Source of the DNA: a bacterium
GTDB taxonomy: Bacteria > Patescibacteriota > Minisyncoccia > UBA6257 > GWB1-50-10
Length of the DNA stretch: 64,000 nucleotides
NCBI GenBank assembly: GCA_002686365.1
Contig: NZBZ01000020.1
Coordinates: forward strand, 55,484 to 119,483
Direction of reading: 5' to 3'
A program made the position numbers and the translations under genes. The notes beneath the pieces were generated by a model, which saw only the letters and a program-made list of their open reading frames with translations, was not told the origin of the DNA and ran no database searches. Numbering within the stretch: position 1 is the stretch's first letter; every line of letters begins with the position of its first letter. Positions 52,141-54,625 of this stretch are shown here, piece by piece.

Positions 52141-52383
52141 ATGGACGATCAACCAACACCTACACCAGGAGGCGACGAAGGAGCACCTACACCAGGTGCA
52201 CCTATGCCGGGAGCACCAGGAGCACCTACACCAGGAGCACCTACACCAGGAGCACCTGAAGCACCAGGAGCACCAGGCGCACCTATGCCAGGAGCACCTG
52301 AAGCACCAGGAGCACCAACTCCTCCTGCAGAAGAAGGAGGAGCACCAGGAGGCGACCAGTCGACTCCCGGAGCCCCTGCGTAA
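52141..52383 (+). CDS. Pro/Gly/Ala-rich low-complexity ORF built from 9/18-nt tandem repeats
   Basis: (GAPxP)n peptide; the DNA is GGAGCACCWRNNCCA-type tandem repeats; a terminator follows directly. Confidence 0.35.
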
Positions 52384-53413: not shown

Positions 53414-53647
53414 ATGGAGGATATGTTATTCAAGGGTATTGGGGTAATAGGGCTTGTACTGATTACTATAGGGATAATAGTGGGAAGACGGAAAACACAG
53501 AGCTTTCTTTTTATTATAGGAGGTCTTTGTTTAGGAGCTTACAGTATTTATATAAGAGATGTCATATTCATAATCCTACAGATAGTATTTACTCTCGTAG
53601 CTATTTATGAATTTATAAAACTTCAGTTTGGGGCGCATAAAAAATAA
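53414..53647 (+). CDS. hypothetical small membrane protein
   Basis: 77 aa with two hydrophobic helices. Confidence 0.35.
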   Translation: MEDMLFKGIGVIGLVLITIGIIVGRRKTQSFLFIIGGLCLGAYSIYIRDVIFIILQIVFTLVAIYEFIKLQFGAHKK

Positions 53648-53649
53648 AA

Positions 53650-53672
53650 TGAGCCAGCGGCCGGATTTGAAC
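53650..53672 (-). other. tRNA 3' fragment (T-loop + T-stem 3' strand + acceptor 3' strand CGCTGGC + discriminator)
   Basis: Minus strand TTCAAATCCGGCCGCTGGCTCA; the acceptor strand is exactly complementary to the GCCAGCG 5' fragment at 53836-53855. Confidence 0.5.
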
Positions 53673-53684
53673 ATTTATTACTTG

Positions 53685-53757
53685 AGCCACCTCCCGGATT
53701 TGAACCGGGGACCTTCACTTTACGAAAGTGCTGCTCTACCAACTGAGCTAAGGTGGC
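53685..53757 (-). tRNA. tRNA-Arg (anticodon ACG)
   Basis: GCCACCTTAGCTCAGTTGGTAGAGCAGCACTTTCGTAAAGTGAAGGTCCCCGGTTCAAATCCGGGAGGTGGCT folds as a cloverleaf with 7-bp acceptor, D and T arms and anticodon loop TTCGTAA; CCA is not encoded. Confidence 0.85.
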
Positions 53758-53835
53758 ATTGCTCTTCCGGGGCGAGCCCCGATATACTAAAATCACTGTA
53801 GCTCGCCCGTTGAAAGCAAAATCGTTTGCTTTCAA

Positions 53836-53855
53836 CCCAACTGAGCTACGCTGGC
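53836..53855 (-). other. tRNA 5' fragment (acceptor 5' strand GCCAGCG + D-arm start TAGCTCAGTTGGG)
   Basis: Minus strand GCCAGCGTAGCTCAGTTGGG, then a perfect 11-bp hairpin instead of the rest of the D-arm. It is preceded by a leader homologous to the tRNA-Arg leader (GGCTCRCCCYGGAAGAGCARTGCC). Confidence 0.5.
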
Positions 53856-53929
53856 ACTGCTCTTCCAGGGTGAGCCTCGAAAGTAACACCTCCATACTAA
53901 TCAAGAAAACATAATAGGTAAAGCATATT

Positions 53930-54625
53930 ATGCCTTCATACAATTCAAATATCGCATATATAACAATATCCGCAGGAGCAGGAGGAGACGATGCTAAGGA
54001 TTGGGCAAAGATGCTTTTTCGTATGTATCAGAAATATGCAGATAAGAAAAATTGGAAGAAGCGCCTTATTAATGAAAATACTGTAGAGATAAAAGGCGAG
54101 AACGCATATAAACGTCTAAAAGACGAGTCAGGCGTTCATCGTCTTGTGCGCATCTCTCCATTTGACTCAAAGCGCTTGCGCCACACCTCGTTTGCCCTCG
54201 TAGAAGTACTTCCGGAAGTCGAAGGCATAGAAGCAGGTATTCCACAGGAAGATCTAAAGGTAGAATTTTTCCGCTCGAGCGCTCCAGGAGGACAGAACGT
54301 AAATAAGGTAGAAACCGCAGTAAGAGCAATACATCTTCCCACGGGATTGAAAGCAGGCGCGCAAACAGAACGTTCTCAATCAGCAAACAGAGAACGCGCA
54401 GTAAAACTCTTAAAAGCAAAGCTCGCAAAGCTTCTCGAAGAACGTAAGGAAAAAGAAATCAGCAATCTTAGAGTAAAGGTGGAGCCGGATTGGGGGCATG
54501 AGATTCGTTCATACGTTTTACATCCGTACAAGATGGTAAAAGATCACGAGACAAAAAAGAAAAGCGGAAAGGTGGAGGAATTTTTGGGTGGAGATATTGA
54601 CATTTTGTTCAAAAAGAAAAAGTAA
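53930..54625 (+). CDS. peptide chain release factor 2-like protein lacking domain 1
   Basis: ISAGAGGDDAKDWAKMLFRMY..., HRLVRISPFDSKRLRHTSF (SPF motif, RF2-type) and GGQNVNK; 231 aa against about 365 for full RF2. A stop codon lies 4 codons upstream in frame and tRNA genes occupy the upstream DNA. Confidence 0.8.
   Translation: MPSYNSNIAYITISAGAGGDDAKDWAKMLFRMYQKYADKKNWKKRLINENTVEIKGENAYKRLKDESGVHRLVRISPFDSKRLRHTSFALVEVLPEVEGIEAGIPQEDLKVEFFRSSAPGGQNVNKVETAVRAIHLPTGLKAGAQTERSQSANRERAVKLLKAKLAKLLEERKEKEISNLRVKVEPDWGHEIRSYVLHPYKMVKDHETKKKSGKVEEFLGGDIDILFKKKK

Follow-up and report, generated by a model that had tools for sequence, protein, structure and literature searches.

The window (the whole 64-kb stretch of DNA that was analyzed) holds, on the minus strand at 53876 to 53650, a complete tRNA gene situated between the two ends of another one. 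Read 5' to 3', the order is leader 1, a 5' tRNA piece, hairpin 1, the hairpin 2 region, leader 2, and the intact tRNA, continuing with a spacer of 12 to 13 nt, an outer 3' piece, the dinucleotide CA, and a T-rich run. The individual features are as follows.

53856 to 53876, minus strand: leader 1, GGCTCACCCTGGAAGAGCAGT, located by pattern match, directly 5' of the outer 5' piece.
53836 to 53855, minus strand: outer 5' piece, GCCAGCGTAGCTCAGTTGGG, 20 nt, designated allele A, a member of repeat family D1.
53809 to 53836, minus strand: hairpin 1, GTTGAAAGCAAA-CGAT-TTTGCTTTCAAC, a perfect 12-bp stem with a 4-nt loop (inverted repeat I2).
53770 to 53808, minus strand: hairpin 2, formed by GGGCGAGC at 53808 to 53801 and GCTCGCCC at 53777 to 53770 (inverted repeat I1).
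53758 to 53778, minus strand: leader 2, GGCTCGCCCCGGAAGAGCAAT, located by pattern match, directly 5' of the intact tRNA.
53684 to 53757, minus strand: intact tRNA-Thr(CGT) with acceptor strands GCCACCT/AGGTGGC, assigned by ARAGORN, Rfam RF00005, and its cloverleaf.
53672 to 53683, minus strand: short spacer, AAGTAATAAATG, read from the sequence, between the 3' end of the inner tRNA and the outer 3' piece.
53650 to 53671, minus strand: outer 3' piece, TTCAAATCCGGCCGCTGGCT(CA), 20 nt plus CA, allele A, repeat family D2.
53639 to 53649, minus strand: T-rich run, TTTTATTTTTT, read from the sequence, 3' of the outer 3' piece.

Two assemblies, the window and the independent L081, agree base for base on this locus, and a third (L082) is identical to the window from within the inner tRNA up to RF2. 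An assembly artifact was thereby ruled out. The neighboring open reading frames encode TrxB, a 77-aa membrane protein, and RF2, the last of which is short at 231 aa. The host is a marine (Tara) member of the Parcubacteria/Patescibacteria. A repeat finder recovered both inverted repeats along with two families of direct repeats, one of 44 nt (86% identity) and one of 23 nt (87%). The tRNA pieces at 53855 to 53836 and 53671 to 53650, the 8-bp stem, and the paired leaders of the preliminary description were all present; its 11-bp hairpin was perfect, as claimed, but is 12 bp long (53809 to 53820 with 53825 to 53836).

The intact gene at 53757 to 53684 was identified as tRNA-Thr with anticodon CGT by ARAGORN and Rfam alike (RF00005, 66.8 bits, E = 2.4e-12) and is presumably the functional gene. 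It had been described as tRNA-Arg(ACG), but this takes the anticodon from the wrong strand, where CGT appears in reverse complement as ACG. Consensus promoter and terminator scans called nothing in either nested locus, that of the window or that of the relative L083 described below, and a promoter is therefore not claimed; the T-rich run possibly marks the end of the tRNA transcript. A tmRNA or two-piece tmRNA was considered and rejected, as ARAGORN reported none and the acceptor stem is not tmRNA-like.

The outer 5' piece comprises an acceptor strand (GCCAGCG), TA, the 5' strand of a D-stem (GCTC), and a D-loop (AGTTGG(G)), within which it breaks off at G18/G19 (53836/53837). The right-hand piece starts at the T-loop (TTCAAAT, from 53671) and continues through the 3' strand of the T-stem (CCGGC), the acceptor strand CGCTGGC, and a discriminator T, followed by CA. 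Both resemble the inner tRNA, with 17/20 positions identical to its first 20 nt for the 5' piece and 20/23 identical to its 3' end for the 3' piece (family D2). The acceptor strands of the outer pieces had been reported as exactly complementary, which they are at 7/7 positions (53855 to 53849 against the 3' piece), and the match is more than chance. Acceptor positions 5 and 7 are where the outer 5' strand departs from the inner tRNA; in the outer 3' strand it is precisely their two pairing partners that depart, each to the base that keeps the pair. For pieces that were independently mutated copies of the inner gene, the chance of such compensation was estimated at ∼1/189. Because the acceptor differences are exactly compensatory, both pieces are parts of one former, once-intact tRNA-Thr allele distinct from the inner one. 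The fit of the 3' acceptor strand to the outer 5' piece also means that the inner 3' end was not the source of the 3' piece by att-type duplication, a possibility that the preliminary description had allowed. Since the 7/7 complementarity is still intact, the event in the window is argued to be recent.

The body of the outer tRNA is absent, amounting to ∼34 nt that would include the 3' strand of the D-stem, the anticodon arm, the variable loop, and the 5' strand of the T-stem. With these parts missing, no decoding tRNA can be rebuilt, and in tests of in silico joined and edited constructs the joined outer pieces (42 nt) gave no tRNA. The outer ends are therefore best explained as pseudogene relics rather than as exons or halves of a joined tRNA. 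When introns were allowed, ARAGORN did return tRNA-Thr(TGT) on a construct lacking the leader, inner tRNA, and spacer. To make this call, the program has to place an intron of 30 nt within the anticodon and to accept a D-stem of 3 bp and a T-stem of 4 bp, and the call was rejected as spurious, given the two artificial excisions and the many degrees of freedom. An outer gene that is complete but degenerate, with two insertions, was likewise discarded: its supposed T-stem 5' strand (CCCCGG) is part of the leader repeat, and its supposed anticodon arm is unpaired.

RF2 was used as the handle for finding related loci. Five more distant relatives (L001, L084, L092, L103, and L188) each have just one tRNA-Thr(CGT), of ordinary form and encoded on the strand of RF2. 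Their RF2 is 71 to 73% identical to that of the window in L092, L084, and L188 and 61% identical in L001, while that of L103 falls in the same 90%-identity cluster as the RF2 of L083. The tRNA lies directly upstream of RF2 in L001, L084, L092, and L188, with a 378-aa ORF intervening in L103, and downstream of trxB in L084, L092, L103, and L188. Judged from this distribution, the single ordinary arrangement is ancestral, and because all five relatives show it on the strand of RF2, the inverted, nested state is derived. The preliminary description had foreseen that an ordinary tRNA in related genomes would mark the outer copy as a decayed pseudogene; such a tRNA was found in all five, and this supports the relic status of the outer pieces. 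No tRNA adjoins RF2 in L088, L098/L099, L100, L101, L102, or L189, which are uninformative.

The closest relative found, L083 from Hainich groundwater (RF2 83% identical), also has the tRNA region inverted, and its nest has three layers. The outermost is an orphan 5' piece, GCCACCTTAGCTCAGCTGGG, which has no 3' partner downstream, as would be expected of a relic. Together with hairpin 1 (arms CCGAAAGCAAA/TTTGCTTTCGG), the GGGCGAGC...GCTCGCCC stem, and the leader, it forms a module that L083 shares with the window. The second layer, tRNA #2, is a tRNA-Thr(CGT) with acceptor GCCAACG, interrupted between G18 and G19 of the D-loop by an insert of 167 nt with perfect 20-bp terminal inverted repeats and no coding capacity. 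Inside this insert lies the intact tRNA #3, again tRNA-Thr(CGT), with acceptor GCCGGTG; in the predicted fold, a helix of 20 to 21 bp encloses it. In silico removal of the insert restores a perfect tRNA-Thr(CGT) cloverleaf, so that joined exons give a complete cloverleaf for tRNA #2 of L083 but not for the window.

Every layer whose anticodon survives reads Thr(CGT), and each insert thus replaces the function that it destroys. The nested alleles are divergent. Alleles #2 and #3 of L083 are 73% identical to each other, whereas allele #3 shares 89% identity with those of L188 and L001, and the inner tRNA of the window is 85% identical to the allele of L092. With nested alleles this divergent and their nearest relatives in other lineages, incoming DNA is favored over local duplication. 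The earlier suggestion of a tRNA gene disrupted by a duplicated tRNA unit is accordingly retained as to the disruption, which is the reading preferred here, and abandoned as to the local duplicate, in place of which a divergent allele is found.

The two leaders in the window are identical at 18/21 positions, and the leader pattern was matched twice in the window (53876 to 53856 and 53778 to 53758) against 0.00 matches expected from shuffled sequences, which bears out the homology claimed previously. A homologous leader of 22 nt precedes the ordinary tRNA-Thr of L092, and the leader travels with the gene; another precedes the tRNA-Thr(GGT) of L094. The first eight bases of leader 2 pair with GGGCGAGC. 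Hairpin 1 starts at the break point of the outer 5' piece, and hairpin 2 has an A+T-rich loop of 23 nt containing a −10-like TAGTAT. In L083, the stem of hairpin 2 is identical and its loop contains TATAAT, while hairpin 1 is kept, with C-G in place of U-A at two of its pairs. The 57-nt two-hairpin module is absent from the five relatives with the ordinary gene. A loop-loop interaction of CGAT/TGAT in hairpin 1 with ATCG/ATCA in hairpin 2 covaries, but it lies at an indel boundary and was set aside as too weak.

The degree of conservation of this region was unexpected for a scar. Between the window and L083, the block of ∼100 nt made up of the 5' piece, hairpin 1, hairpin 2, and leader is ∼82 to 84% identical, whereas the 4-fold synonymous sites of RF2 are 27% identical, that is, saturated, and the RF2-proximal spacer is not alignable. 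Vertical, neutral inheritance of the module is therefore implausible, as a neutral relic passed on in this way should have decayed, and the conservation falls outside a simple scar picture. Two explanations are left: selection acting on the module, whether as a cis element or as a cassette's functional end, and a recent exchange between lineages.

A candidate agent was found beside the tRNA in two of the relatives. In L084, trxB and the tRNA are separated by a free-standing ORF of 149 aa whose stop codon falls within the tRNA; it was identified as an HNH endonuclease by PHROG 1271 (E = 7e-17), although Pfam at its default cutoff did not recognize it. L103 retains a 39-aa C-terminal HNH remnant at the same position (85% identity, E = 6e-16). 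Among the phage homologues, 18/29 loci examined have the HNH gene within a tRNA array, whose strand it shares; in 10 of those 18, representing about five independent groups, tRNA-Thr is the nearest upstream tRNA, and in a T5-like Klebsiella phage the homologue lies a few tens of bases past tRNA-Thr. No endonuclease, integrase, or transposase was detectable in or beside the window locus, and tblastn of the L084 protein against the window gave nothing significant (best E-value, 0.39). L083 lacks the HNH gene too. Because neither nested locus holds such a gene, a role for the enzyme at these loci is one that we infer.

These observations are probably best accounted for by a break at the DNA level in a resident tRNA-Thr gene, which was largely replaced by a block carrying a foreign tRNA-Thr(CGT), its ends being left behind as relics. 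Allele A would have been broken in the D-loop at G18/G19 and its nucleotides ∼20 to 53 swapped for a block of ∼164 nt, in which the two-hairpin module (57 nt) and a leader precede a complete foreign tRNA-Thr(CGT) and a trailer of 13 nt follows it. The outcome would be a single working gene, the tRNA-Thr(CGT) at 53757 to 53684 with its own 21-nt leader, and the outer ends would probably be transcribed only within the leader and trailer of the inner tRNA. The three layers of L083 suggest that the process is recurrent at the trxB - tRNA-Thr(CGT) - RF2 site in one clade of Parcubacteria, with small cassettes that bring their own replacement tRNA-Thr(CGT) landing in the D-loop of the resident gene. 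As each cassette would land in the resident D-loop, successive events would yield nested, Russian-doll genes. Double-strand breakage and recombinational repair at the tRNA gene are the likely driver, and the tRNA-array-associated HNH homing endonuclease adjoining this tRNA in relatives may be the agent. In T-even phages, SegB cleaves inside tRNA genes and drives recombination-dependent duplications via short homologies (PMC13096335). Several points weigh against this account. Besides the conservation of the module and the lack of a detectable mobility gene at the window locus, the cassette is single-copy in the 64-kb window and was not found in viral contigs or JGI metagenomes; a specificity for G18/G19 is read from only three junctions in the two known nested loci; and while the insert of L083 is precise, the event in the window would require, in addition, the loss of 34 nt from the target.

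A more specific form of the same account is put forward tentatively. A cassette of ∼160 nt without a protein gene, mobilized in trans, may target G18/G19 in the D-loop of tRNA-Thr(CGT) in Parcubacteria and deliver a replacement tRNA with its leader. If this is correct, the replacement tRNA would let the host survive each hit, repeated hits would build the nested "matryoshka" tRNA genes, the two-hairpin module (in L083, the 20-bp inverted repeats) would be a recognition or recombination structure, and the mobilizer could be, for example, the tRNA-array-associated HNH endonuclease of the relatives' locus. No further copy of the cassette was found in the 64-kb window, the other fetched loci, viral contigs, or JGI metagenomes. 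A scan of the JGI metagenomes with the leader-plus-tRNA pattern gave four matches, of which L094 alone was relevant; its tRNA-Thr(GGT) has a similar leader but is not nested. Scans of viral contigs for hairpin 1, the hairpin/stem junction, and the L083 inverted repeat returned nothing relevant, and the 56 matches of a short-pattern viral-contig scan were all due to chance, with no tRNA context.

An unlikely but serious alternative is local rearrangement without any cassette or endonuclease, in which tandem tRNA-Thr paralogues underwent unequal crossing-over, slippage, or deletions between the shared tRNA blocks TAGCTCAGTTGG and GGTTCAAATCC, leaving the 5' end of one copy and the 3' end of another on either side of the survivor. 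Both break points do adjoin the tRNA blocks of highest conservation, the homology of the leaders is what tandem copies would show, and the window has no mobility gene. Against this, the relatives have only one tRNA-Thr(CGT) at the site, and the nested alleles diverge as much as alleles of different genera. The order of a 5' end of allele A, a full gene, and a 3' end of allele A would require at least three copies and two deletions, and a simple tandem array offers no source for the unique 57-nt module. Nor does slippage yield a precise insertion with 20-bp inverted repeats such as that of L083.

Unlikely to a similar degree, and likewise a serious alternative, is the proposal that the 5' piece and the two-hairpin module form a selected, functional cis element, with only the 3' piece an incidental relic. 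Such an element could serve the tRNA-Thr gene as a structured leader, as a promoter or insulator, or as a signal for processing or recombination. The conservation of the module while the synonymous sites of RF2 are saturated is what this proposal would predict, but recent lateral exchange accounts for the similarity equally well. Similarly, the window and L083 have all 21/21 predicted pairs in common, two of which differ in both bases and still pair, but with two sequences the covariation test has no power, and 118/500 shuffles did as well. The TAGTAT/TATAAT in the loop of hairpin 2 is at the right distance for a transcript start at the conserved leader, although the scans called no promoter or terminator consensus. 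In addition, the module matched no Rfam family, and the five relatives with the ordinary gene do without it. The proposal is partly compatible with the replacement of allele A by incoming DNA, taken as the source of the module.

Very little probability was given to events at the RNA level, in which the inner tRNA would be excised as an intervening sequence, or the outer pieces ligated or paired as a split tRNA. The outer acceptor strands do pair at 7/7 positions, also in the minimum-free-energy fold that had been proposed as a check; tRNA #2 of L083 is complete, and the 20- to 21-bp helix of its insert could hold the halves together. In the window, the lack of the anticodon arm and of half of the D and T arms largely refutes this reading, whether as a tRNA gene with a large intervening sequence or as split halves pairing in trans, both of which the preliminary description had entertained. 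The breaks lie outside the anticodon loop, and a check with ARAGORN allowing introns, proposed with those readings, matched only the edited construct described above, with its two artificial excisions. Rfam models gave no Intron_gpI or other ribozyme match in the window at the gathering threshold and no group I core or other ribozyme match at E ≤ 10 within 53550 to 54000. By inspection, no bulge-helix-bulge motif is present at the junctions of the window or of L083; both L083 junctions lie outside the unbroken helix of 20 bp, and the 4-nt segments needed for a central helix lack complementarity. An insertion at G18/G19 would furthermore disrupt the D-loop/T-loop elbow, the outermost 5' piece of L083 has no 3' partner, and since the outer and inner genes share their anticodon, nothing would be gained by joining.

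Least probable of all, with hardly any chance, are attL/attR-type tRNA fragments of a since-deleted island or prophage with an integrase: a 5' piece is present as well as a 3' piece and is broken in the D-loop, which is not known as an integrase sublocation, the 3' piece is no copy of the inner 3' end but fits the outer 5' piece, the pieces lie only 12 to 13 nt and 57 nt from the intact gene, and no integrase occurs in the neighborhood. The right-hand break does fall at the T-loop, a known crossover zone of integrases (Williams 2002). Partial tRNA copies beside an intact tRNA are, moreover, the usual signature of an integrated element (PMC9897764).

The literature searches turned up no account of one tRNA nested within another in bacteria or CPR. 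The nearest known category is that of tRNA gene fragments left by incoming DNA, where partial tRNA genes flank integrated genetic elements as duplicates of the att site (van der Gulik et al. 2023, PMC9897764). Like those, the present pieces are nonfunctional, lie beside an intact gene of the same isotype, and would stem from a DNA-level event in which the incoming DNA makes good the function it interrupted. They differ in that fragments of both ends, 5' and 3', enclose a complete gene in a span of less than 230 nt, the allele of the fragments is not that of the intact gene, one break is in the D-loop, and the insert is ∼160 nt without an integrase. When membership in the att class was examined, the 3' piece was found not to be a direct repeat of the adjacent intact end, and no integrase-bearing element lies between repeats. 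The abutting HNH gene of the relatives recalls the homing endonucleases of phage tRNA clusters (T4/T6 SegB, PMC13096335; T5-like HNH), but the window and L083 have no endonuclease gene, and SegB is a GIY-YIG rather than an HNH enzyme and yields tandem amplification, not nesting.

Among disrupted tRNAs, the noncanonical bulge-helix-bulge introns and the split and permuted tRNAs of archaea and algae (PMC3218864, PMC3978253) also have interruptions outside the anticodon loop, including in the D-arm, and the interrupted gene of L083 is otherwise complete. Here, however, the host is bacterial, the outer gene of the window lacks essential parts, and the insert holds a whole tRNA gene with the same anticodon. 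Bacterial group I introns likewise place an intervening sequence in a bacterial tRNA gene, but in the anticodon loop and with a catalytic core detectable by the Rfam model (10.1101/2020.01.27.920355); here, one break falls within the D-loop and the other ahead of the T-loop, and no core was found. With its perfect 20-bp terminal inverted repeats and lack of coding capacity, the 167-nt insert of L083 is reminiscent of MITEs. Unlike these, it contains a tRNA gene and turned up in no further copies, and a target site duplication is doubtful, a 2-nt TG being possible but implying an abnormal D-loop; the insert of the window has a terminal hairpin and no inverted repeats at its two ends. What distinguishes the present variant is a complete tRNA of the same anticodon in the D-loop of its homologue, on an insert of ∼160 nt without a protein gene, in a recurrent and layered form.

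Bacterial tRNA fragments are usually read as the footprints of large, integrase-bearing islands. The locus described here is a compact alternative to these: an entire tRNA gene lodged in the D-loop of a homologue, an arrangement that recurs in layers in a related genome. At such loci, standard tRNA finders output the inner gene alone, and intron-tolerant settings may give spurious "intron-containing" calls on the relics. If the cassette model is true, it would define a new class of self-compensating microelement, and homing endonucleases, which have been studied in phage tRNA clusters, would be tied to the turnover of tRNA genes in the reduced genomes of CPR bacteria.

The release factor gene beside the tRNA locus was found to encode a short RF2 without the ~125-aa N-terminal domain 1 present in ordinary RF2:

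window 53930-54625, + strand, RF2 gene (231 aa; SPF and GGQ motifs; Pfam PCRF and RF-1 domains)

As judged from its homologues, this short form is a lineage trait rather than a truncation due to the tRNA locus, because the 120 best of 4129 RF2 homologues (E<=1e-60), mostly from Patescibacteria, were all 221 to 278 aa in length.

Among relatives with a single ordinary tRNA-Thr(CGT), an HNH endonuclease gene was observed at the tRNA in L084, and a remnant occupied the same position in L103:

L084 2485-2934, + strand, free-standing HNH endonuclease gene abutting the 5' end of tRNA-Thr(CGT)
L103 1409-1525, + strand, 39-aa remnant of an HNH endonuclease gene

Phage homologues of the L084 gene were frequently sited in tRNA arrays, some of them directly after tRNA-Thr. 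The array adjoining one such homologue, at the phage locus L163, also contained an interrupted tRNA-like gene:

L163 2404-2520, + strand, tRNA-like gene with acceptor strands GGAGATG/CATCTCC

This gene, the anticodon of which is probably CAT, was interrupted in its anticodon region by about 43 inserted nt and was not found by ARAGORN run without introns.

Selfish-looking small ORFs were also present in the syntenic ftsE-ftsX region of two relatives, L084 and L088, the latter an RF2-homologue locus with no tRNA next to RF2:

L084 5457-5699, - strand, GIY-YIG domain ORF after ftsX
L088 4529-4906, + strand, 23S_rRNA_IVP-family ORF between ftsE and ftsX

Two further small ORFs were noted in the window:

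53414-53647, + strand, 77-aa membrane ORF with a weak YgjV-like Pfam match (E=0.004)
52141-52383, + strand, putative 80-aa ORF composed almost entirely of Pro/Gly/Ala/Thr repeats (PGAPTPGAP...)

The membrane ORF, located between trxB and the tRNA locus, was confined to the window's lineage and may have arrived together with the inverted tRNA block. The putative repeat ORF was overlapped by ORFs in other frames.

Further features next to tRNA-Thr genes were observed at the locus of a relative with 61% RF2 identity, L001, and on an unrelated metagenome contig, L094:

L001 3468-3840, + strand, RNase P RNA gene (Rfam RF00010, 118.5 bits)
L094 120-221, + strand, tRNA-Thr(GGT) with the 5' leader GGCTTCGGAAGGGCGAT

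In L001, the RNase P RNA gene lay directly upstream of tRNA-Thr(CGT), which ended at the ATG of RF2. Since the L094 leader resembled those of the window, the GGAAGRGC leader motif may be more widespread among the tRNA-Thr genes of this group.

The independent assembly L082 was found to begin exactly within the D-arm of the inner tRNA, with its position 1 corresponding to window ~53733. This break is consistent with assemblers failing on the repeated tRNA 5' segment, and nested tRNA loci may therefore be under-represented in metagenome assemblies.
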